A stretch of DNA of 64,000 bases from an uncultured Candidatus Saccharimonas sp. (GTDB taxonomy: Bacteria; Patescibacteriota; Saccharimonadia; Saccharimonadales; OMJO01), in the NCBI GenBank assembly GCA_943353165.1, contig CALRAM010000002.1, positions 65,716 through 129,715 on the forward strand, in the 5' to 3' direction. The position numbers and the translations under genes were made by a program. Under the pieces are notes generated by a model. It saw only the letters and a program-made list of their open reading frames with translations, was not told the origin of the DNA and ran no database searches. Shown here in pieces: positions 3,381 through 42,128 of this stretch. Each line of letters begins with the position of its first letter. Position 1 is the first letter of the stretch.

Positions 3381-5267
3381 ATGACTGCCCAAGAAATACG
3401 CCAAAAATACCTAGACTTTTTTAAAGCACGCAATCATTCTGTGATTCCCAGAGCTTTATTGGTGCCTCAAAACGATCCAACAACTTTATTCACCGGCAGT
3501 GGCATGCAGCCGTTAATTCCCTATTTGTTGGGCGAAAAACATTCTGATGGGACTAGGTTAGCAAACAGTCAGACCTGTCTGCGAGCTCAGGACATAGACG
3601 AAGTAGGCGACAATCGTCACACGACTTTTTTTGAGATGCTGGGTAACTGGAGCCTGGGAGATTACTTTAAAAAAGAACAACTGCCATGGTTTTTTGAGTT
3701 TCTTGTCGAGATAGTTGGACTCGACCCAAGTCGTTTGTACGTAACTTGTTGTAGCGGTTTTCCAGAATACGATGTGCCAAAAGACTCCGAATCCGGCGCT
3801 CTATGGAAACAGTTATTTGAAGCCAAAGGCATCAGTGCCAAAGAAGTAGAAGTCGGTTCCGAAGCGAATGGCTACAAAGTGGGTGCGCAAAACGGCCGCA
3901 TCTTTTATTACGACGAAAAAAACTGGTGGAGTCGCAATGGTCCTCCGCAAGACGTCAAGATAGGCGAACCATGTGGCCCTGACAGCGAAGTATTTTATTT
4001 ATTTGATGAAATTGAACACGACACTTCGTGGGGCGAAAAATGCCACCCCAACTGCGACTGCGGACGCTATATGGAGATTGGTAATTCTGTTTTCATGGAA
4101 TACATTCGCACCAAAGACGGGTTCGAAAAATTACCAAAACAGAATGTTGATTTTGGCGGGGGTCTAGAACGTATTGCGGCTGCTAAACAAAACAACCCAG
4201 ATGTATTCAGGATCAGCATTTTGTGGCCAATTATCGAAGAGCTCCAGAAGTTATCTGGCAAAAAGTATGAAAGCCACACCGAAAGCATGCGCGTGATTGC
4301 CGATCATTTGCGAGCGGCGACTTTCTTGGCTGTCGACGGACTCGTACCGAGCAATAAAGAGCAGGGATACGTAATGCGTAGACTATTACGCCGGGCTATT
4401 CGCTTCGCCTTTGATCTGGGCATCGAGCAAAATTTCTTAGAACAAGTCGTTCCAGTTATTGCTGACATGTACCACAAAGATTATCCAGAAGTTGGCCAGA
4501 AACGCTCTGTTATTATCGAGGTCTTGGTTCGCGAGGAAAAAGTCTTTCGTCAGACGTTACGAAAAGGGCTAAAAGAGTTCAAGAAACTTACTGAAAGTGG
4601 TCTGACAGGCAAAGAAGTTTTTGTGCTTTACGATACCTACGGTTTTCCGCTGGAGCTAAGCCTTGAAGAAGCCTATAAACAAGACGTCAAAGTTTCGGAC
4701 AATTGGCAAAAAGAGTTTGATAATTTGATGAACGAACAGCGGAAACGATCACAAACTGCCAGCAAAGGAATATTTAAGGGTGGTTTGGGCGGCACCAGTT
4801 TACAGCACAAAAAATACCACACCGCTACTCACCTGATGTATCAAGCGTTAAGGGATGTATTGGGTAATCATGTTGTGCAGAACGGCTCAAACATTACCGA
4901 AGAGCGACTGCGGTTTGATTTTAGTCATCCAGAAAAGGTAACACCCGAGCAGATAGAACAAGTTGAAGAAATTGTAAATAAACAGATTGCAAATGATTTA
5001 AAAGTAAGTTTTGAAGAATTTCCTACAAAAGTAGCCGTAGAAGAAAAGGGTGCTTTGGGGCAGTTTGGAGACAGATATGGCGCCACAGTAAAAGTATATA
5101 AAATGATAGCCGATGGTGCAGCAAAACCTTATAGCTTTGAAATATGTGGTGGTCCACATGTTGACCACACCTCGCAATTAGCTGGCTCACCACCCAGAAA
5201 ATTCAAAATCATTAAAGAAGAAAGCTCATCTGCAGGTATCCGAAGGATAAAAGCTATTTTAGTATAA
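3381..5267 (+). CDS. alaS: Alanyl-tRNA synthetase, short form (catalytic plus editing domains, no C-Ala domain)
   Basis: FTGSGMQP catalytic motif; editing-domain HTATHLMYQAL and CGGPHV metal motifs. I prefer the ATG at 3381 (MTAQEIRQKYLDFF) over the upstream start at 3345. Confidence 0.9.
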   Translation: MTAQEIRQKYLDFFKARNHSVIPRALLVPQNDPTTLFTGSGMQPLIPYLLGEKHSDGTRLANSQTCLRAQDIDEVGDNRHTTFFEMLGNWSLGDYFKKEQLPWFFEFLVEIVGLDPSRLYVTCCSGFPEYDVPKDSESGALWKQLFEAKGISAKEVEVGSEANGYKVGAQNGRIFYYDEKNWWSRNGPPQDVKIGEPCGPDSEVFYLFDEIEHDTSWGEKCHPNCDCGRYMEIGNSVFMEYIRTKDGFEKLPKQNVDFGGGLERIAAAKQNNPDVFRISILWPIIEELQKLSGKKYESHTESMRVIADHLRAATFLAVDGLVPSNKEQGYVMRRLLRRAIRFAFDLGIEQNFLEQVVPVIADMYHKDYPEVGQKRSVIIEVLVREEKVFRQTLRKGLKEFKKLTESGLTGKEVFVLYDTYGFPLELSLEEAYKQDVKVSDNWQKEFDNLMNEQRKRSQTASKGIFKGGLGGTSLQHKKYHTATHLMYQALRDVLGNHVVQNGSNITEERLRFDFSHPEKVTPEQIEQVEEIVNKQIANDLKVSFEEFPTKVAVEEKGALGQFGDRYGATVKVYKMIADGAAKPYSFEICGGPHVDHTSQLAGSPPRKFKIIKEESSSAGIRRIKAILV

Positions 5268-6594: not shown

Positions 6595-8270
6595 GTATAA
6601 CCCAAAAAGACACTATTTATATCGACATAGACGACGAGATAACCTCTGTTATAGAAAAAGTTAATGACAGCAAAAGCAAGATATTGGCGTTAGTATTACC
6701 AAAAAGAGCAGCAGTTTTGCAGAGCACCGTAAATATGCGTTTGCTAAAAAGAGCCGCCAAAGAAAGTAACAAAAGTGTCGTGTTGATAACTTCGGAGACT
6801 GCCCTGTTGCCATTGGCTGGAGTTGTCGGCTTGCATGTGGCTAGAACCTTGAACTCCAAACCAGCTATACCGCCAGCGCCAGACACAGACGCCTCGCACA
6901 TAACCATAGATGATGATCTGTCTAGTTCTGATGTAGAAGAGCTAGTAGATATAGACCCTAAAACAACGGTAGGAGAATTGGCGGGCGACGCCATGCCCAA
7001 CGAAGATGAGCCTATAGTAGTGGATTATGACGAAGACGACCAAGCAAACGAACACAAGACCGAAAAACCTGTAAAAGATAAAAAACTAAAGGTACCCAAT
7101 TTTGACCGTTTCAGGACAATAATATTGCTCGGCGGTGGCGCGTTGGTAATGCTGTTGACGTTAGGGATCTGGGCATTTGTTGTTGCGCCAAAGTCAACTA
7201 TTACGATTAGCACCAACACATCTCCTCTGAGTAGCTCCGTTATATTAACGGCCAGCACATCTGCAAAGACGTTGGACAAGGCCCAGCAAATTGTTCCGGC
7301 CAGCACCAAAGAATCAAAGAAAACCGATACACAAAAAGTTCCGGCCACAGGCGAGAAGAATAATGGCACAAAAGCAGGCGGCACGATGACAGTTTTCTAT
7401 TGTCCAAGCAACGACAACACACAGATTAGTTTGCCAGCAGGTAGTGCTTTCGTAAACAACGGTGTAGTTTTCCGCACAAATGTAGCAGTTACTGTTCCGG
7501 CCAGCAATTTTCTGGGTGGGGGTACATGCAAAAAAGATTTATCTCAAAATGTGGCAGTTACATCAGAACAAGCAGGCGACAAATACAATTTAAGCTCTAG
7601 AAGCTACATTGGTGTAGATAACTCGGCAATTTCGGGAACAGGTTCGGCAATGAGTGGTGGCACTAGCAAAATTGTCAAAGTTGTTAGTCAGTCAGATGTT
7701 GATGCAGCAAAACAACAAATGCTAGACCGCACAAAAACCGCAGCTATAACTGAGCTGACTAAACAGTTCAATGATGCCAATATGTTTGCATTGACCGACA
7801 CTATAACAGCAGTATCTCAGACAGCAACACCGTCGCCGAGCGTCAACGAGGAAGCCTCCGAAACTACTGTAGGTCTAAATGTTACATATGCTATGACGGG
7901 TATCTCGAAATCAGACTTGAAACTCCTAGTAGAGGCCAGCGTAAAGGACAAGATAGATCTTAGCAAAGAACAGATACAAGATGAAGATTACGGGCTAGGC
8001 AAGGCCAGCGTAAAGATTCAAGAAAAGAAGGCCAACGGCGACACAAAAGTAGAGATACAATTTCAGCTGAGCATAGGCCCGAAGCTAGAGATTGATGCGC
8101 TAAAAAAAGAAGTAGCAGGAAAAAAACGCGGCGATGTAGTAAATTTGATAAATAGTAGACCGGGCGTCAAGGATGTTTCTGTTAGATACAGTCCTTTTTG
8201 GGTAATGTCTACTCCTAGCAACCCCTCAAAGATAACCATAGTACTAGAAAAAATAAATGACAATAAATAA
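6591..8270 (+). CDS. Hypothetical bitopic membrane protein, translationally coupled to ftsA
   Basis: ATGA overlap with the ftsA stop. About 95-aa N-terminal domain, acidic linker, one TM helix (ILLGGGALVMLLTLGIWAFVV) and a large Ser/Thr-rich outer domain. Confidence 0.55.
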   Translation: MSITQKDTIYIDIDDEITSVIEKVNDSKSKILALVLPKRAAVLQSTVNMRLLKRAAKESNKSVVLITSETALLPLAGVVGLHVARTLNSKPAIPPAPDTDASHITIDDDLSSSDVEELVDIDPKTTVGELAGDAMPNEDEPIVVDYDEDDQANEHKTEKPVKDKKLKVPNFDRFRTIILLGGGALVMLLTLGIWAFVVAPKSTITISTNTSPLSSSVILTASTSAKTLDKAQQIVPASTKESKKTDTQKVPATGEKNNGTKAGGTMTVFYCPSNDNTQISLPAGSAFVNNGVVFRTNVAVTVPASNFLGGGTCKKDLSQNVAVTSEQAGDKYNLSSRSYIGVDNSAISGTGSAMSGGTSKIVKVVSQSDVDAAKQQMLDRTKTAAITELTKQFNDANMFALTDTITAVSQTATPSPSVNEEASETTVGLNVTYAMTGISKSDLKLLVEASVKDKIDLSKEQIQDEDYGLGKASVKIQEKKANGDTKVEIQFQLSIGPKLEIDALKKEVAGKKRGDVVNLINSRPGVKDVSVRYSPFWVMSTPSNPSKITIVLEKINDNK

Positions 8271-28420: not shown

Positions 28421-30061
28421 ATGAATAAAATAGCACATTATCTGCAGGAACATTTGTCCGGTGAAGTTATGACCAACCAGGAAGCACTGGAGTATTTTTC
28501 TACCGACGCCAGTATCCTGCGCTTAACTCCATCTATCGTGGTGTACCCACGGAACGAAAACGATATTCGTAAAACTACCAGATTTACTTGGCAATTGGCC
28601 GAAAGAGGCAGAGTAATACCCCTGACTGCTCGTGGATCAGGAACAGATCAGAGCGGCGCAGCGCTTGGTAGCGGGATTGTCATGATTTTCCCTGCTCATA
28701 TGCACAGAGTTTTGGATCTGGATGGAAAGACCGGCACAGTAACCATAGAACCCGGAATAAACTACGGAACACTACAACAAACTCTACATACACACGGCAG
28801 GTTTTTGCCACCGTATCCTGCGTCAAAGGAGTACAGCACAGTTGGAGGTGCCATAAGCAACAATGCCGCTGGGGAAAAAACAATAAAATACGGTAACACC
28901 CGTGATTATGTCAAAAGTTTGCGCGTTGTGCTGGCCAATGGCGAAGTCATAGAAACACGCAGAATATCCAAAAAAGAGCTAAACAAAAAATTGGGGTTGG
29001 CAACCTTTGAGGGTGAAATATATCGTAGCTTAGATGTTTTAATAGAAGAAAATAAAGCCGTATTGTCTAATTTAGCGCCCAAAGTAACAAAGAATTCATC
29101 TGGTTATGCCTTGGATTTGGTAAAACGAAAAGACGGCAGCTTTGACCTGACACCGCTAATTGTTGGCTCGCAGGGCACTTTGGGAGTGGTCAGCGAAGCT
29201 GTACTAGGAACAGAGCCTCATAACCCCAAAACGACATTGATCGTTGCTTTTTTCGACGATTTGGTGGTAGCCGAAGCAGTGTTGTTGGAATTGGATAAAA
29301 TATCTGATACACCAAGCGCCATAGAGGCGGTGGACGGAAATTTGCTAAAACTAGTTAAGTCCAAAAATCCAAATCTACTAAAGGGTGTCATAGATTCAAC
29401 TCTACCAAAGCTAGTTTTGCTGGTAGAGTTTGACAATACAAGCGATCGAATCCAAAAAAGCTTGGCCAAACGCGTAGAAAAGATAATGGCTAGCCAACAG
29501 ATAACCTGTCAGATAGAAACCGATCCCGCTGCACAAGAAAAATTGTGGAGTATCCGCCGAATGTCAGCGACAATTGCGGCTAGTGTTGATGCAAATGGAG
29601 CAAAGGCTTTGCCAATGATAGAAGATGGAATTGTGCCATTGGCTAGGTTCAAAGATTATATGCACGGAGTCTATGCACTGTTTGAGCGCTATGGCCTAGA
29701 AGCTGCAGCTTGGGGGCATGCAGGAAACGCCAACCTACATATGCAGCCGTTTCTGAACTTGTCGCAGGTCGGAGACCGTCAAAAAGTATTTAGGTTACTA
29801 GATGAGTACTATGAACTAGTGCTAAGCATGGGCGGTAGTACAACAGCAGAGCATGGCGATGGTCGTATCAGGGGGCCATATTTGCCCAGAATGTTCCAGC
29901 CCGAAGAATATGAATTGTTCCAAAAAACAAAGCAGATTTTTGATCCTTATGGCACCTTGAATCCGGGTGTCAAAATCGATGTAAAGATAGAAGACATAAA
30001 GCCACTACTCAGACACGAATACAGCACGGCTCATTGGCTACAACATATGCCGCACAACTAG
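28421..30061 (+). CDS. FAD-linked oxidase (GlcD / D-lactate dehydrogenase family)
   Basis: FAD_binding_4-type motifs (ARGSGTD, GGAISNNAAGEK) and a C-terminal oxidase domain. The start could be ATG 28421 or TTG 28397. Confidence 0.8.
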   Translation: MNKIAHYLQEHLSGEVMTNQEALEYFSTDASILRLTPSIVVYPRNENDIRKTTRFTWQLAERGRVIPLTARGSGTDQSGAALGSGIVMIFPAHMHRVLDLDGKTGTVTIEPGINYGTLQQTLHTHGRFLPPYPASKEYSTVGGAISNNAAGEKTIKYGNTRDYVKSLRVVLANGEVIETRRISKKELNKKLGLATFEGEIYRSLDVLIEENKAVLSNLAPKVTKNSSGYALDLVKRKDGSFDLTPLIVGSQGTLGVVSEAVLGTEPHNPKTTLIVAFFDDLVVAEAVLLELDKISDTPSAIEAVDGNLLKLVKSKNPNLLKGVIDSTLPKLVLLVEFDNTSDRIQKSLAKRVEKIMASQQITCQIETDPAAQEKLWSIRRMSATIAASVDANGAKALPMIEDGIVPLARFKDYMHGVYALFERYGLEAAAWGHAGNANLHMQPFLNLSQVGDRQKVFRLLDEYYELVLSMGGSTTAEHGDGRIRGPYLPRMFQPEEYELFQKTKQIFDPYGTLNPGVKIDVKIEDIKPLLRHEYSTAHWLQHMPHN

Positions 30062-30077
30062 GACACTGGTTGCCAAA

Positions 30078-30106
30078 TTGAGTTTTTGGCAAAAAAATTG
30101 TAAAAT
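30078..30106 (+). promoter_or_regulatory. Promoter in front of the truncated tRNA-Leu copy: TTGAGT - 17 nt - TAAAAT
   Basis: -35 at 30078-30083 and -10 at 30101-30106. It shares the TTGTAAAAT context with the tRNA-Leu(CAG) promoter. Confidence 0.45.
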
Positions 30107-30156
30107 AACGTGGTAAATGCGCGAGTGGTGGAATGGTAGACACGCTTGTCTGAGGG

Positions 30157-30185
30157 GTGAAACCCGCCTGTGGCGGGTTGCAAGG
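30157..30185 (+). repeat. GC hairpin repeat, copy H1 (gtgaaacccgcc-tgt-ggcgggttgcaagg)
   Basis: Stem 30161-30168 / 30172-30179 with a 3-nt loop. It directly abuts the tRNA-Leu 5' fragment. Confidence 0.85.
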
Positions 30186-30311
30186 TCGGAAGCCTGGATT
30201 GCGCAAGCAACCAAGCTGAGACGGGGTCGCAAATGATTGGGAACTAATGTTCCCAGTAATATTGTGACAGTGCCGCAAGGTGATCCCCGTCTGTGGCAAC
30301 CAAGTCCTCTC

Positions 30312-30320
30312 TGGTATAAT
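30312..30320 (+). promoter_or_regulatory. Extended -10 box TGgTATAAT for the intact tRNA-Leu(GAG)
   Basis: Ends 24 nt upstream of the tRNA 5' end. It sits where the acceptor 3' strand of the truncated copy would be. Confidence 0.55.
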
Positions 30321-30344
30321 TACTTGAACCCTGTATCGATAAAT

Positions 30345-30428
30345 GCGCGAGTGGTGGAATGGTAGACACGCTTGTCTGAGGGGCAAGTGCCGCAAGGTGT
30401 GGAGGTTCAAGTCCTCTCTCGCGCACCA
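30345..30428 (+). tRNA. tRNA-Leu (anticodon GAG), CCA encoded
   Basis: Hand-folded. Acceptor gcgcgag/ctcgcgc, anticodon stem cttgt/gcaag, loop ctGAGgg, variable arm with a GCAA loop, T arm ggagg-ttcaagt-cctct. Confidence 0.9.
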
Positions 30429-30437
30429 AAACAAAAT

Positions 30438-30466
30438 AACGACCTCTAAGGTCGTTTTGTTGTTTT
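30438..30466 (+). terminator. Intrinsic terminator after tRNA-Leu(GAG)
   Basis: Stem aacgacc/ggtcgtt followed by a U-rich tail. Confidence 0.7.
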
Positions 30467-30489
30467 GTAGCCGAGGACTTGAACCGAAA

Positions 30490-30519
30490 GGTGAGACCCG
30501 CCTGTGGCGGGTCGCAAGG
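30490..30519 (+). repeat. GC hairpin repeat, copy H2 (ggtgagacccgcc-tgt-ggcgggtcgcaagg)
   Basis: Stem 30495-30502 / 30506-30513. Confidence 0.85.
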
Positions 30520-30647
30520 ACTATTGACTGATTTAATACTTGTTTTAAGTAAGTCAAAGTCGGGGTTGCGCTAGCGTGACCAAGTCCCCCGCCTGTCTGA
30601 CCGAGCCCCCTGTCTTTTTGACAAGAAGGCCAGGCAGGACGGACAGG

Positions 30648-30756
30648 TCTCTCGCGCACCAAAACAAAATAACGACCTCCATGGTCGTTTTGTTGTTTTG
30701 TAGCCGAGGACTTGAACCGAAAGGCGAGACCCGCCAGTGGCGGGTCTCAAGGACTA
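30648..30756 (+). repeat. 109-nt direct repeat, copy 2 (orphan tRNA-Leu acceptor 3' strand + CCA + terminator + linker + hairpin H3)
   Basis: Starts at tctctcgcgcacca with no tRNA body upstream. The five differences from copy 1 fall in or next to hairpin loops and at one stem-closing position. Confidence 0.9.
30723..30752 (+). repeat. GC hairpin repeat, copy H3 (ggcgagacccgcc-agt-ggcgggtctcaagg)
   Basis: Perfect 10-bp stem gagacccgcc/ggcgggtctc. Confidence 0.85.
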
Positions 30757-30767
30757 GATACTAATTT

Positions 30768-31898
30768 TTATGTGTCTTTTGGTTTGTTTCGGCTGATATA
30801 ATAGTTTATTTTTTCAAAAGCTACTACCTGAATTTGTCTGATTCTCTCTCTAGATACGCCCAATATTTGGGCTACTTCATCTAGAGTTTTTGGGTCTCCA
30901 GAGTCTATCCCAAACCGAAGCTTTAGTATATTTGCTTCCCGTTCGGTCAAAGCTGACATTAGTTGTTCTAGCTGAACGCCAGAGTTTATTTGATCAGTTT
31001 TATGTTCTGTAGAGTCTACTTCTTCGGAAATAATATCGTACAGACTATTTGTATTGTCATCTGTATCAGAGCCAAATGTGCTATCTAATGATTTGGCTGG
31101 TTTTTGCTGGGTATATATCATCAGGGCGTCATTTGCATCTTCTGGGCTTATGCCTAGTTGCATTGATAGCCATTCTACTGTGGGTACTGTGCCTTTTTCT
31201 ATTTTACCGGTGGCAAGGTTGTTCATTTCTATGCTGACAAGCTTGTTTATTGTATTTTTTCTGTGGGGCAAGCGTATCAGGTGCGCGTCGTTTGCTTCGC
31301 TTCGTTCAATTGACTGTTTTATCCACCACGAAGCGTAGGTAGAAAACTTGAAGCCTTTTGACCAGTCAAACTTGGGAATACTACGTATAAGTCCTATTAC
31401 TCCGTTATTGAAATGATCATCACGGTCTACTACGGCCGTAAAAGCAGAGCCAGATCTTTTGCCGACTATGGAGGCTACCAATCTGAGATTTGCATGGACA
31501 GCTTCATTTTCAGCCCAGTCTAATATGGGAGCCACCTGATTCTTTTCGACAATGTTTGAACTGTCATCATCCAACACATCGTGGCCGCTTTTTATCAGAA
31601 AAAACAAACTAGTTTCTTGGGGCCTGTTTAATAGGTCTACGTTTTTTAGGCTGTTCAGGACTTGTCTATAAGAGAAATCGGAAAGATTTAGGTTGCCCCC
31701 TTTGTTTGTGTATTGTTGGGTTCGTTGGGCTTTCAGTTCTTCTGCAACCGACATGTATTCTATCAGAGAATTTTCTCGACGGTCTGGATCCATCAGTCCA
31801 TCAGAAATTTCCATTAAGTGTGCTCTCTGACGAGTCCATTCTTCGTTATATTCTATTTGCGGACGTGGTTCATTTTCTGGGTTGTATTGTGCAGTCAT
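30768..31898 (-). CDS. RNA polymerase sigma-70 family factor (housekeeping-like)
   Basis: Region 2 FSTYASWWIKQSIERS; region 4.2 LDEVAQILGVSRERIRQI; 376 aa. Confidence 0.9.
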   Translation of the reverse strand: MTAQYNPENEPRPQIEYNEEWTRQRAHLMEISDGLMDPDRRENSLIEYMSVAEELKAQRTQQYTNKGGNLNLSDFSYRQVLNSLKNVDLLNRPQETSLFFLIKSGHDVLDDDSSNIVEKNQVAPILDWAENEAVHANLRLVASIVGKRSGSAFTAVVDRDDHFNNGVIGLIRSIPKFDWSKGFKFSTYASWWIKQSIERSEANDAHLIRLPHRKNTINKLVSIEMNNLATGKIEKGTVPTVEWLSMQLGISPEDANDALMIYTQQKPAKSLDSTFGSDTDDNTNSLYDIISEEVDSTEHKTDQINSGVQLEQLMSALTEREANILKLRFGIDSGDPKTLDEVAQILGVSRERIRQIQVVAFEKINYYISRNKPKDT

Positions 31899-32792: not shown

Positions 32793-32800
32793 TATAAAAT

Positions 32801-32825
32801 GCCTCAGCTAGTCTGGGGCTTTTTA
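32801..32825 (+). terminator. Intrinsic terminator after tRNA-Gly
   Basis: Stem gcctcag/ctggggc followed by TTTTT. Confidence 0.7.
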
Positions 32826-32844
32826 TATGGTTTGACGACTCATA

Positions 32845-32967
32845 CTCCTGGCCTCTTCAAAGATAAAATATGGCCAGGATTGCTCGCGAACGCGCCTGTG
32901 GTCGGGAGTTTTTGAGTCTCCTCACCCGCACCATATAAAATGCCTCAGCAAACCTGGGGCTTTTTAT
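32845..32967 (+). pseudogene. Rearranged 3' fragment of tRNA-Gly with a 27-nt insert in the T stem, plus a duplicated terminator
   Basis: An inverted 14-mer of tRNA nt 40-53 (32845-32858), direct ggccagga (32872-32879), then the insert ttgctcgcgaacgcgcctgtggtcggg. T loop, acceptor 3' strand, CCA and terminator follow (32914-32967, matching 32773-32826). Confidence 0.8.
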
Positions 32968-33041
32968 TTGGCGATAGTCTTGTAAAATATGGGATATTAT
33001 AGTATAATCTGTAAATAATTTCATAAGGAAAGAAAATTAAG

Positions 33042-41792: not shown

Positions 41793-41869
41793 TGGTGGAG
41801 CATAAGGGATTCGAACCCTTGACCTCTTCCATGCCATGGAAGCGCGCTAGCCAACTGCGCCAATGCCCC
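41793..41869 (-). tRNA. tRNA-Ala (anticodon GGC), CCA encoded
   Basis: Hand-folded on the minus strand. Acceptor ggggcat/atgctcc with G3:U70, anticodon loop atGGCat, T arm aaggg-ttcgaat-ccctt. Confidence 0.9.
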
Positions 41870-41879
41870 AAGTACGACT

Positions 41880-41888
41880 ATTATAGCA
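41880..41888 (-). promoter_or_regulatory. Extended -10 box TGcTATAAT for the intact tRNA-Ala
   Basis: Ends 10 nt upstream of the tRNA 5' end on the minus strand. Confidence 0.55.
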
Positions 41889-41975
41889 AAAAGGGTTCGA
41901 AATATTTTAGGGATTCGACTCACCTTAGGCGAGCCCGTCGCAACATCTATGCAAACCAGTTTGCAAGAGTTGACT

Positions 41976-42006
41976 CCCTTGCAACCCGCCACAGGCGGCT
42001 TTCACC
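41976..42006 (-). repeat. GC hairpin repeat, copy H4 (ggtgaaagccgcc-tgt-ggcgggttgcaaggg)
   Basis: Same 30-nt motif as H1-H3. It abuts the tRNA-Ala 5' fragment exactly as H1 abuts the tRNA-Leu fragment. Confidence 0.85.
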
Positions 42007-42128
42007 TTGACCTCTTCCATGCCATGGAAGCGCGCTAGCCAACTGCGCCAATGCCCCAAGTATGGTGTTTGGTCTGGCACCACCTAGATATAATACATTA
42101 TTTTAGTATGCGTATTTAATGCTAAAGT

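Follow-up and report, generated by a model that had tools for sequence, protein, structure and literature searches.

The GC-rich hairpins that lie beside tRNA genes in the window, by which is meant the whole 64-kb stretch of DNA that was analysed, belong to a larger non-coding module of 88–92 nt, here called M. At a probability of roughly 0.6, M is a tiny, discrete insertion element of Saccharibacteria that is mobilised in trans, is specific for tRNA genes and survives only in dispensable copies of them. M matches no catalogued RNA family or mobile element. Rfam gave only the tRNAs and matches at chance level, both with its curated cut-offs over the window and with E ≤ 10 for the two loci; M had no intron match even at E ≤ 10. 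Neither by eye nor with Rfam did M match hammerhead, hairpin, HDV-like, twister or similar ribozymes, and full-text literature searches found no description of it. A CRISPR repeat was considered and rejected, since CRISPR-DR28 scored 17–19 bits in Rfam against a threshold of 35, and the spacings are 334 and 233 nt with DNA in between that is itself repeated.

M opens with UGAGAG, a hairpin (H) and GCAAGG, continues with a long variable hairpin (P2) and GGG, and closes with a hairpin (P3) that ends in GUGAC; its ends are fixed, as (G)/UGAGAG ... GUGAC/(C). Of its subterminal hairpins, both on the sense strand, H marks the 5' end and P3 the 3' end. The earlier note on this DNA had described H alone, as a hairpin unit of about 30 nt with four copies at tRNA loci. 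All four are present, and far above chance: the core CCGCCWGTGGCGG occurs exactly four times in the window, and shuffled sequences gave 1.0 ± 1.1 matches with up to two mismatches, the observed count being reached in 0 of 100. H1 (30156/8–30185, plus strand), H2 (30490/2–30519, plus) and H4 (41977–42006, minus) are the 5' parts of the modules M1, M2 and M4, and H3 (30723/5–30752, plus) is a module cut down to its first hairpin, with only H aligning to the covariance model. The hairpin is therefore real but makes up only the 5' third of a three-hairpin module; about 60 nt of M beyond it, and the behaviour of M as a discrete insertion, had been missed. The perfect 10-bp stem reported for H3 was confirmed, as were the degenerate cores, now placed at 30283–30300 and 32880–32905, both in the T loops of partial tRNA copies. 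The 9-mer CGCCTGTGG, thought to be confined to tRNA loci, has one further occurrence at 7345–7353 (minus) within an ORF, where it comes without a hairpin and without a covariance-model match.

The fold of M is supported by covariation. A covariance model, R1, was built from 31 hand-trimmed copies, in whose alignment 95% of cells are paired and double changes occur at 18 of the 30 pairs; a control in which partner columns were slid along the same alignment gave 36–48% paired. Among 94 distinct copies, in an alignment fitted to the model, 96% of cells are paired, with compensatory double changes at 27 of 30 pairs, including 8 of 9 in H. The proposal that the hairpin is a conserved base-paired element is borne out by this covariation, and the compensatory change noticed at its third stem pair recurs across genomes (GC 72, AU 13 and GU 9 in the 94 distinct copies). 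G-U pairs outnumber A-C pairs (GU/UG 57, AC/CA 7), which places the fold on the tRNA-sense strand and fits the option of an RNA structural module; one G-U pair, in P3, is kept in 80 of 87 scored copies. When all columns were scanned against all others for covariation that would point to pseudoknots or tertiary pairs, the sole outcome was that P2 is longer (by columns 34:84 and 31:87 in alignment A4). H is joined to P2 and P3 in every copy except decayed ones. The subtypes of P2 are independent of tRNA identity, and near-identical P2 sequences are found at different tRNAs.

R1 matched 125 copies of M across the window and 91 public loci, and true matches were confined to Saccharibacteria/Patescibacteria. 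An exact search with a 22-nt pattern gave 42 genome loci, 40 of them in Patescibacteria and the other two without a model match, plus 49 metagenome loci. The suggested tie to tRNA loci held when the model was combined with a table of genomic contexts: most copies are tRNA-adjacent, with 110 of the 125 no farther than 350 nt from a tRNA, 108 of which share its strand; 27 tRNA species are involved. The REP-like, genome-wide scatter that the earlier note had held out as the contrary outcome was not found, as R1 had no match away from tRNA loci over the 64-kb window. The orientation of M follows the tRNA and not replication; GC skew is positive throughout the window, yet M4 is on the minus strand like its tRNA and is inverted relative to M1–M3 within one replichore. 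Five of the eight tRNAs in the window have no M, and the set of tRNAs that carry it varies by genome. A phage origin was rejected: three search patterns, based on the H core, on a variant of P3 and on a variant of the H stem, had no match in 2.9 million viral contigs.

M takes the place of 2–3 nt, mostly GT or TT, at G/NN/C sites. These belong to the D arm, in its loop or stem, to the stem or loop of the anticodon arm (37/38), or to the variable and T loops. In downstream units it stands in the T loop in 31 of 31 cases; in upstream units it is found at tRNA positions 17, 24–25, 30, 37, 46 and 51–54, with about 10 of 48 mapped upstream insertions in stems rather than loops, which is awkward for the targeting of a folded tRNA. 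M is also nested within M, replacing the GT of GGG-GT-CGC every time, and two loci (L005, L037) have two copies within one partial tRNA copy. In a single case (L014) M lies in a small-RNA-like gene other than a tRNA, which has no Rfam match at E ≤ 1. The truncated tRNA copies that carry M adjoin an intact gene; some reach from the promoter end as far as the T arm, the others from the T arm onwards to the 3' end. There are also partial copies free of M (L089), so that the duplication and M may be independent. Several contigs terminate inside M arrays.

Evidence for a discrete insertion comes from two loci of near-identical strains, L061 and L092, whose flanks are 98–99% identical and which read GAGGG-(88 nt)-CGAATCC and GAGGG-TT-CGAATCC, respectively. 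The difference is a bare 88-nt M within a full-length tRNA-Ser(CGA) gene, where it replaces the TT of the T loop without target duplication, leaving the filled allele without T54-T55. The two are read as filled and empty states of one site; both are short metagenome contigs, for which the collapse of a repeat array is a conceivable alternative. A comparison of the flanks of every copy with every locus gave no other clean filled/empty pair.

The tRNA-Leu(GAG) locus of the window, on the plus strand, has a promoter-like −10 box (TAAAAT, ending at 30106) upstream of a partial tRNA-Leu(GAG) copy at 30114–30157, which consists of a 5-nt leader and the 5' part to about position 39 and is the same as 30340–30383 (repeat D2, 44 nt, 100%). 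M1 (30158–30268; R1 45.3 bits, E = 3e-9) follows at the anticodon loop's 3' edge in this copy and comprises H1 (to 30185), P2 and a P3 bearing an extra inner hairpin; its minimum-energy fold is the three-hairpin fold (z = −5.6). The rest of the partial copy and the junction to the intact gene (30269–30344), read against the intact tRNA, hold the variable arm (30269–30282), a decayed H remnant in the T loop (30283–30300), the 3' half of the T loop with the 3' strand of the T stem (30301–30312), an extended −10 box TGgTATAAT that ends at 30320 and an inverted T-arm piece, ACTTGAACC (30322–30330). A promoter-like site, GTGGCA-16-TATAAT, runs from 30293 to 30320, and its −35 box lies in the H remnant. 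The intact tRNA-Leu(GAG) (30345–30428; ARAGORN, Rfam tRNA 53.2 bits) is followed by a terminator-like hairpin (30438–30456) and by a spacer, delimited from sequence at 30467–30491, with an inverted copy of the T arm, GAGGACTTGAACC (30473–30485), that pairs with the T arm in the fold.

The complete module M2 (30492–30580; R1 65.2 bits, E = 5e-14), with H2, P2 and P3, sits within the T loop of a 3' partial copy of tRNA-Leu. Its minimum-energy fold is the consensus fold (z = −4.7), and its P2 agrees at 42/42 nt with that of the new L061 insertion. The remainder of this downstream unit (30581–30722; repeat D1, 120 nt, 93% identical, spacing 233) consists of a 3' fragment of the T loop (30581–30587), an unrelated 60-nt hairpin insertion (30588–30647), a copy of the tRNA 3' end, TCTCTCGCGCACCA (30648–30661), and a second terminator (30671–30689), then a second spacer with an inverted T-arm piece. 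A relative that is 96–97% identical (L087/L103) has exactly one 233-nt unit fewer. H3 (30723–30752) is 16 nt from the stop codon of a convergent sigma-factor gene with sigma-70 domains (30768–31898, minus) and probably serves as its terminator; it alone of the hairpins scans as terminator-like, on the minus strand. In a search for strain polymorphism at this locus, nine assemblies with an identical sigma-factor protein proved 99.7–100% identical to 30001–30800 where their contigs cover it.

At the tRNA-Ala(GGC) locus, on the minus strand, the partial copy (42005–42062) runs from a 5-nt leader and the 5' end to the 5' strand of the T stem and is the same as 41817–41874 (repeat D5, 58 nt, 100%). 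M4 (41918–42004; R1 97.8 bits, E = 7e-22), the top-scoring copy in the window, replaces G53-T55 of its T loop; the sense strand folds at −35.7 kcal/mol versus −23.5 for the antisense. The junction to the intact gene (41870–41917) holds a T-loop 3' fragment, CGAATCCCT, an inverted T-arm piece (41891–41901) and, read from sequence, an extended −10 box, TGCTATAAT, about 10 nt 5' of the intact tRNA-Ala(GGC) (41793–41869; ARAGORN, Rfam tRNA 63.8 bits). The inverted T-arm pieces are a difficulty for the insertion reading of M. What the earlier note called pseudo tRNAs are exact partial duplicates of the adjoining intact genes, Leu matching at 44/44 nt and Ala at 58/58 nt. At tRNA-Gly(GCC), on the plus strand, a decayed downstream unit (32793–32971; repeat D4, 61 nt, 93%) comprises a terminator, a 22-nt inverted copy of tRNA positions ~39–60 (32837–32858; inverted repeat I5, 22 nt, 95%), a direct copy that spans the variable region with the 5' strand of the T stem (32872–32879), a 26-nt H remnant (32880–32905) and a copy of the tRNA 3' end with a terminator (32906–32971). 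The 26-nt piece is too decayed for detection by the model and appears to be what remains of an M. The direct repeats of tRNA segments in the window (44, 58, 61 and 120 nt) flank the inserted DNA and leave an intact tRNA, as at the attachment sites of elements that integrate in tRNA genes, and the same is seen at most loci.

An enzyme that could move M was sought in its surroundings. The 56 ORFs of the window, compared with Pfam, are housekeeping genes or match no family, and include no recombinase, transposase (RAYT (Y1) among them) or reverse transcriptase. Tyrosine recombinases are absent from the 25 most frequent families among 119 neighbour ORFs of 43 loci, a count that families present once or twice would escape. 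L003, L025 and L026 have large serine recombinase genes no more than 2.5 kb from M; three independent islands of the same family (L043–L046) have no M or tRNA within 10 kb, so that the nearness to M looks incidental and the enzyme was rejected as its partner.

Taken together, these observations suggest how M may live. Insertion of M would knock out the host tRNA, and M would then persist only in dispensable genes or in truncated duplicates beside an intact copy, which would confine it in the window to the pseudo-tRNA pieces at tRNA-Leu, tRNA-Ala and tRNA-Gly. Since M is non-coding and no recombinase is nearby, it would be moved in trans via a single-stranded intermediate of the sense strand. 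The route that is tentatively preferred, at clearly less than even odds, begins with the entry of M into tRNA transcripts, after which reverse copying of the chimeric RNA would place DNA next to or inside the parent gene. Such a route would account for partial copies that begin at the 5' end of the transcript or stop at the CCA or terminator, and also for the snap-back inverted pieces within them. It is possible, but doubtful, that M instead undergoes strand-specific transposition as single-stranded DNA into the exposed non-template strand of heavily transcribed tRNA genes. No less speculative is a reading of M as a parasite of tRNA at the RNA level, a structured and possibly catalytic RNA of about 90 nt that would insert itself at exposed G/NN/C sites of tRNA and other stable-RNA transcripts and become heritable after reverse transcription and recombination at the parent gene. 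In that case one would regard the truncated tRNA copies as "retro-pseudogenes" of bacteria, beginning at the transcript 5' end or ending at the CCA or terminator and cut short at the opposite end; snap-back inverted pieces are typical of self-primed cDNA. We know of no transposition or reverse-splicing chemistry that replaces 2–3 target nt without target-site duplication. The presence of M at 37/38 of tRNA-Leu(NAG) and tRNA-Pro(GGG) in many genera could also reflect old vertical inheritance and a host function, not current mobility. Decayed copies seem to be recycled by the host, judging by H3 as a terminator-like hairpin and the H remnant as a −35 box.

Among other explanations, a role for M as recombination arm in miniature integrative cassettes, like integron attC or a folded phage attP, is rather unlikely. 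Small DNA circles would carry M with a replacement tRNA part (promoter and 5' part, or 3' part and terminator), and integration at the M boundary would displace the original part and build arrays, the folded, single-stranded M being recognised by an unlinked recombinase. The make-up of the units, a −10 box and 5' part upstream and a 3' part and terminator downstream, would keep the tRNA functional; arrays of two to three units occur at the Leu locus of the window and in L024, L041 and L071, with a RelB/YafQ toxin-antitoxin pair as cargo of one L041 unit. As in attC sites, sequence varies and structure is kept, and known tRNA-targeting elements leave arrays of partial tRNAs (bioRxiv 10.1101/2020.12.28.424599). 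The 233-nt unit, present in the window and missing from the 96–97% identical relative, would fit a cassette, but homologous recombination between the 120-nt repeats could produce the same indel. Other observations are harder to accommodate: L061 and L092 differ by a bare M, with neither tRNA part nor cargo; upstream M often lies in the middle of a duplication (D loop, 37, variable loop) with tRNA homology on both sides, hence off the duplication boundary; and M inserts into M. Separate cassettes, most of them empty, would be needed for 27 tRNAs, the signature boxes of attC are missing, and no integrase is associated, the serine recombinases near three loci belonging to a type of island that elsewhere lacks M and tRNA over 10 kb. 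It is improbable that M is a host-serving RNA domain of tRNA leaders and trailers, inherited vertically under selection, that steers tRNA transcription, processing or stability or binds a Saccharibacteria-specific protein. Most tRNAs lack M and the carriers differ between genomes, copies decay to remnants (30283–30300, 32880–32905 and H3), downstream units sit behind a terminator, P2 subtypes are not tRNA-specific and the fresh insertion in L061 destroys the T loop. These points outweigh the recurrence of M, across many genera and amid the same neighbouring genes, at one site upstream of tRNA-Leu(TAG/GAG) and of tRNA-Pro(GGG), structure maintained by compensatory change in ~1-Mb genomes that otherwise shed junk, the conserved G-U pair of P3 (80/87), a sense-strand fold co-oriented with promoters and the reuse of pieces such as the terminator-like H3 and the −35 box in the H remnant.

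A small tRNA intron, self-splicing or removed by the host, is very improbable. At the 37/38 sites two nucleotides are gone, including part of the 3' strand of the anticodon stem, and L061 lacks the TT of its T loop; because 2–3 nt are missing, removal of M fails to rebuild the tRNA. Nearly all host copies are truncated beside an intact gene free of M, and M falls short of the size needed for group I or II catalysis, with no intron match in Rfam. To our knowledge, the archaeal splicing endonuclease is absent from bacteria. The intron reading does account for the sense orientation, for 37/38 as the commonest site, which is the canonical position of tRNA introns, and for M in tRNA genes with a complete 3' half (L061, L009), and Patescibacteria are rich in tRNA introns (PMC13011429); even so, the junction sequences come close to refuting it. 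Scarcely credible is the view that H is a generic REP-like palindrome or terminator, or, as had been proposed, the core site of a tyrosine recombinase with two 6-bp arms (AACCCG and CGGGTT) around a 7-bp centre, CCTGTGG. H is palindromic, tRNA loci are favoured integration sites and H3 is terminator-like on the minus strand, but the supposed centre is a 3-nt hairpin loop with its closing pairs, and the free covariation of the arms (double changes at 8 of 9 pairs) already contradicts this view. In other copies they are replaced wholesale yet stay complementary (AACUGCC/GGCAGUU, GAUGAGCC/GCUCAUC, AAAAGCC/GGCUUUU), a swapping of sequence with retention of pairing that argues for a folded single strand and not a protein-binding DNA site. 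Furthermore, the fold is strand-specific, H comes together with P2 and P3 outside decayed copies, the bases after it are GCAAGG, with no T run behind H1, H2 or H4, and the window has neither scattered copies nor a recombinase.

The trans-mobilised insertion element thus remains the preferred reading. M is a new structured element with strong covariation, found in one lineage and absent from Rfam and from the literature searched, and an apparent mobile element that targets only tRNA genes is unexpected in genomes of ~1 Mb with single-copy tRNAs. It would account for partial tRNA duplications, assembly breaks and spurious "hypothetical protein" calls at tRNA genes of Saccharibacteria. The RNA route, if true, would reveal that non-coding RNA moves in bacteria by a new means, and an RNA parasite would be a non-coding bacterial retro-mobile element without a known counterpart. 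The DNA route, if true, would point to a strand-specific insertion enzyme with a compact, programmable-looking substrate.

Several known systems resemble M in part. The short tRNA introns of archaea (Thermoproteales) are tens of nucleotides long, lie in sense at many positions and have reportedly spread between tRNA genes. M is likewise a small non-coding insert in the D loop, at 37/38, in the variable region and in the T loop, with related inserts in different tRNAs. Archaeal introns, however, have bulge-helix-bulge flanks and are excised exactly by the splicing endonuclease to leave a functional tRNA, whereas M has no bulge-helix-bulge, removes 2–3 nt of the tRNA, is found mostly in truncated copies and has a bacterial host. 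With the group I introns that Patescibacteria carry in their tRNA genes, M shares the phylum, the tRNA genes, the sense orientation, the anticodon loop and a covarying structured RNA. Those introns exceed 200 nt, match Rfam with a catalytic core (P3–P9), splice precisely in vitro and lie at 35/36 or nearby in functional genes (PMC13011429); M is about 90 nt, has no Rfam model, occupies at least six kinds of site and leaves a tRNA that cannot be restored.

Like MITEs, REPINs and IS200/IS605-derived elements, M is about 100 nt, non-coding and multi-copy, has hairpins near both ends and a strand-specific structure, occurs at discrete filled and empty sites and needs mobilisation in trans. These elements are scattered between genes in an orientation set by replication, whereas M is confined to tRNA genes and oriented by the tRNA strand; M also lacks terminal inverted repeats, the hairpins at its two ends differ from one another and no matching transposase was seen. 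Hairpins at both ends and the absence of target duplication (L061/L092) agree with IS200/IS605 derivatives; replication-set orientation and exact insertion 3' of a fixed tetranucleotide do not, as 2–3 nt are replaced, and in making no target-site duplication M differs from miniature insertion elements as a group. Like attC, M keeps its structure over drifting sequence, folds on one strand, falls in the 60–140 nt range and lies at the ends of small units in arrays, with toxin-antitoxin cargo (L041). An attC site is one long imperfect hairpin with RYYYAAC/GTTRRRY boxes and G/TT recombination, adjoined by an integrase gene and attI; M differs in its three separate hairpins, its UGAGAG ... GUGAC ends, the lack of boxes and of a nearby integrase, and its insertion also as a bare module. 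Tycheposon-type elements are kilobases long, have their own integrase and use a tRNA segment as attachment site (bioRxiv 10.1101/2020.12.28.424599). In contrast, no integrase was found with M, its units are mostly 140–230 bp, non-coding and without an ORF, and the tycheposon junction has no conserved structured RNA-like module. What M has in common with tycheposons is partial tRNA copies beside an intact gene, stacked units and the supply of a replacement tRNA part that keeps the gene working (bioRxiv 10.1101/2020.12.28.424599).

The four hairpins of the earlier note were all found in the window, at 30156-30185, 30490-30519 and 30723-30752 on the plus strand (H1 to H3) and at 41977-42006 on the minus strand (H4), and they recur above chance: the 13-nt core is present four times exactly, with shuffles giving about one match even when two mismatches were allowed. 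The third stem pair does alternate between A-U and G-C, and folding confirmed the perfect 10-bp stem of H3. It was wrong that the 9-mer CGCCTGTGG is confined to tRNA loci, as it occurs again within an ORF at 7345-7353 on the minus strand, a site with no hairpin and no match to the covariance model discussed below. Alignment around the matches to CCGCCWGTGGCGGGTYNCAAGG, one exact 22-nt pattern searched against one genome per species, revealed conservation reaching around 60 nt past the hairpin, which makes up a third of a larger unit.

This unit, termed M, opens with (G)UGAGAG, hairpin H and GCAAGG, continues with the long hairpin P2, which has several sequence subtypes but always keeps its pairing, and GGG, and closes with P3, a hairpin of 7 bp that has an RRA triloop, conserves one G-U pair and ends in GUGAC(C). 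The covariance model that had been proposed was built from 31 trimmed copies (R1) and run on the window and on public loci, and covariation was found. In the 31 copies, 95% of cells were paired and 18 of the 30 pairs had two-sided changes, with slid registers only 36-48% paired and no shuffle or slid register coming close. Among 94 distinct copies, double changes were seen in 27/30 pairs, including 8/9 within H, in an alignment fitted to the model whose counts lean towards structure; in one example the H stem CCCGCC/GGCGGG is replaced by AACUGCC/GGCAGUU. The excess of G-U over A-C pairs (57 vs 7) and the far better folding of the sense than the antisense strand indicate that the structure belongs to the tRNA-sense strand. 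M is a conserved, strand-specific three-hairpin module confined to one lineage, for which no matching Rfam entry and no description in the literature searched were found. Covariation, strand specificity and distribution together rule out REP and terminator readings of the hairpin, and on the same three grounds the suggestion of a tyrosine-recombinase core site fails.

Extra hairpins are tolerated at the tips of M's own helices (e.g., L010:3643-3779, window 30226-30268, and the public loci L026, L029, L040, L096 and L009). The L010 copy has a 50-nt insert in the H loop, and an inner hairpin of about 30 nt recurs in the P3 loop, including that of M1, the first full copy in the window. In the "GAGUCAACUCUUGC" subtype of P2, the invariant GCAAGG tail of H is able to pair with the P2 5' strand instead, and for M4 (window 41918-42006, minus strand) this gives the fold of lowest energy; the predicted pairing may represent a switch in conformation, or it may be a folding artefact.

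The seed pattern gave 42 genome loci, a set conditioned on the presence of M and under-sampling variation in H, of which 40 are from Saccharibacteria or other Patescibacteria; the remaining two had no R1 match and are therefore chance pattern matches. With the window and 49 metagenome loci included, R1 found 125 copies in total, 110 of which have a called tRNA, drawn from 27 tRNA species, within 350 nt, on the same strand in 108. One of the two "opposite strand" cases, L061, has M inside a tRNA-Ser gene that ARAGORN misses because M interrupts it. In the other, L014 (825-1110, minus strand), M lies in a 5' partial duplicate of an unassigned ~95-nt sequence with a terminator at its end, whose intact copy (~825-914) adjoins tRNA-Arg and which gave no Rfam match at E<=1; this may be a new small RNA gene, targeted by M as a tRNA is. 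Apart from at least one other small gene, M occurs in tRNA genes alone, and invariably on the sense strand.

The decisive case for discrete insertion came from L061 and L092, two short metagenome contigs that are 98-99% identical over >1 kb and present one clean filled/empty polymorphism. The tRNA-Ser(CGA) gene is normal in L092, its T loop reading GAGGG-TT-CGAATCC, and in L061 88 nt of M replaces the TT of the full-length gene, with neither a duplication nor a target repeat at the site. The P2 of this copy is 42/42 identical to that of M2 in the window, while H and P3 differ. As L092 also carries a tRNA-Ser(UGA) gene, wobble decoding makes the disrupted tRNA-Ser(CGA) probably dispensable. The ends of M are fixed and its targets obey a loose rule: junctions read ...G|M|C..., and 2-3 nucleotides of the tRNA are gone. 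The T loop loses TT or GTT, the variable and D loops lose GT, and sites after position 37 lose AG or GC. M is even found within M (L011, L019, L021 and L039), where an inner copy with a different H stem takes the place of the GT of GGG-GT-CGC, at the start of the outer copy's P3. P2 subtypes are independent of tRNA identity. The window is one replichore by GC skew, and M4 is nevertheless inverted together with its tRNA, so the target gene, not replication, sets the orientation.

Comparison of each M-bearing segment with the neighbouring intact tRNA revealed upstream (59 copies) and downstream (49 copies) layouts. In upstream units the partial tRNA copy begins 0-12 nt 5' of the mature 5' end, is broken by M at ~17, 24-25, 30, 37 (18 cases), 46 or 51-54, and extends, in the cases inspected, to the T-stem 3' strand, followed by a short inverted T-arm piece, a -10 box and the intact gene. 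In downstream units the intact tRNA usually has a terminator after it; an inverted T-arm-region copy comes next, then a short stretch of the variable region and T-stem 5' strand repeated in direct orientation, then M. The unit closes with tRNA sequence from T-loop position 56/57 onward, which stops at CCA (L015, L020, L023, L025 and L032) or past a terminator copy (L027 and the window). All 31 mapped downstream cases have M in the T loop, the sole loop of such a fragment. The window holds 8 tRNA genes and no other Rfam family. Its tRNA-Leu(GAG) has an upstream unit (30114-30344), with M at the anticodon-loop edge and, in the T loop, a second copy that has decayed, and one and a half downstream units (30429-30752); tRNA-Ala(GGC) has an upstream unit (42062-41870) and tRNA-Gly a decayed downstream unit (32793-32971).

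Every partial tRNA copy inspected has an inverted T-arm-region copy of the same tRNA at its truncated end, of up to 22 nt and 95% identity at tRNA-Gly (32837-32858), with equivalents in most loci; no mechanism considered explains these pieces well. Partial tRNA copies also exist without M, so the duplications may be independent of it. At L089:5950-6400 (minus strand), two further M-free 5' tRNA-Leu fragments lie downstream of an upstream-type unit at tRNA-Leu(TAG), each breaking in or just beyond the anticodon loop and continuing into unrelated DNA and ORFs, a pattern that points to larger elements by which the 5' portion of this tRNA is likewise replaced. In the downstream partial tRNA-Leu copy, the T-loop fragment is separated from the T-stem 3' strand by an inserted, unrelated segment of 60 nt at 30588-30647, CCCGCCTGTCTG...CAGGACGGACAGG, which is GC-rich and can form a hairpin. 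Across the tRNA-Leu/M array (window 30009-30662, minus strand; L047:5237-5890), public annotation has a "hypothetical protein" of 216-217 aa without a Pfam match, almost certainly a spurious ORF, and several public contigs of this species stop inside the array, indicating that the repeats break assemblies.

Decayed copies appear to have been put to use. At 30723-30770, H3, a module reduced to its hairpin, lies 16 nt beyond the stop codon of a convergent sigma-70 gene (30768-31898, minus strand) and scans as terminator-like on that gene's strand, a role that may account for its "repaired" stem; it has the appearance of a co-opted remnant. For the intact tRNA-Leu(GAG), the best promoter-like site lies at 30293-30320. 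Its -35-like hexamer, GTGGCA, is supplied by a decayed remnant of H (at 30293) and stands 16 nt before an extended -10 box, TGgTATAAT, which directly follows the truncated tRNA-Leu copy.

We infer that M is a non-autonomous mobile insertion, which presumably wrecks the tRNA it enters; this would be why it is found solely where the gene is dispensable or where a truncated copy has an intact gene next to it. None of the 56 ORFs in the window, all housekeeping or without a family match, is a candidate mobilising enzyme. M may pass through an RNA intermediate that is then copied back into DNA, and the evidence leans this way given the confinement to abundant stable-RNA genes, the sense-only orientation, the way partial copies start or stop at transcript ends, and the inverted pieces of snap-back type. 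The main alternative is that M inserts as single-stranded DNA into the non-template strand that highly transcribed genes expose. The absence of 2-3 target nucleotides is accounted for by neither. A host function, which the same M site upstream of tRNA-Leu(NAG) and tRNA-Pro(GGG) across many genera would favour, is improbable, because M is patchily distributed, has in places decayed to remnants and was inserted destructively in L061.

That M might instead be the att arm of cassettes seems unlikely, if less so than a host function. Units keep the tRNA functional and build arrays, and one 233-nt unit in the window is missing from L087 and L103; yet M was inserted bare in L061, sits mid-way within duplicated segments, occurs nested and has no linked integrase. 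An array of three M units lies downstream of tRNA-Lys(CTT) at L041:3144-4460, and the third encloses a promoter and a RelB-antitoxin/YafQ-toxin gene pair (3701-4233), a point for cassettes, so M units can bracket cargo. An intron reading fails, since removing M does not rebuild the tRNA. A large serine recombinase is near three loci, but was rejected as a partner because the same family is found elsewhere without M or a tRNA within 10 kb. This recombinase, with 1822 relatives at E<=1e-20, belongs to an island family widespread in Saccharibacteria (L003:5209-7700; L043-L046) that also encodes an XRE-type regulator, an Mrr-like nuclease and a TraG/TrwB-like coupling protein, and its members resemble integrative mobilisable elements that seem to have no relation to M.
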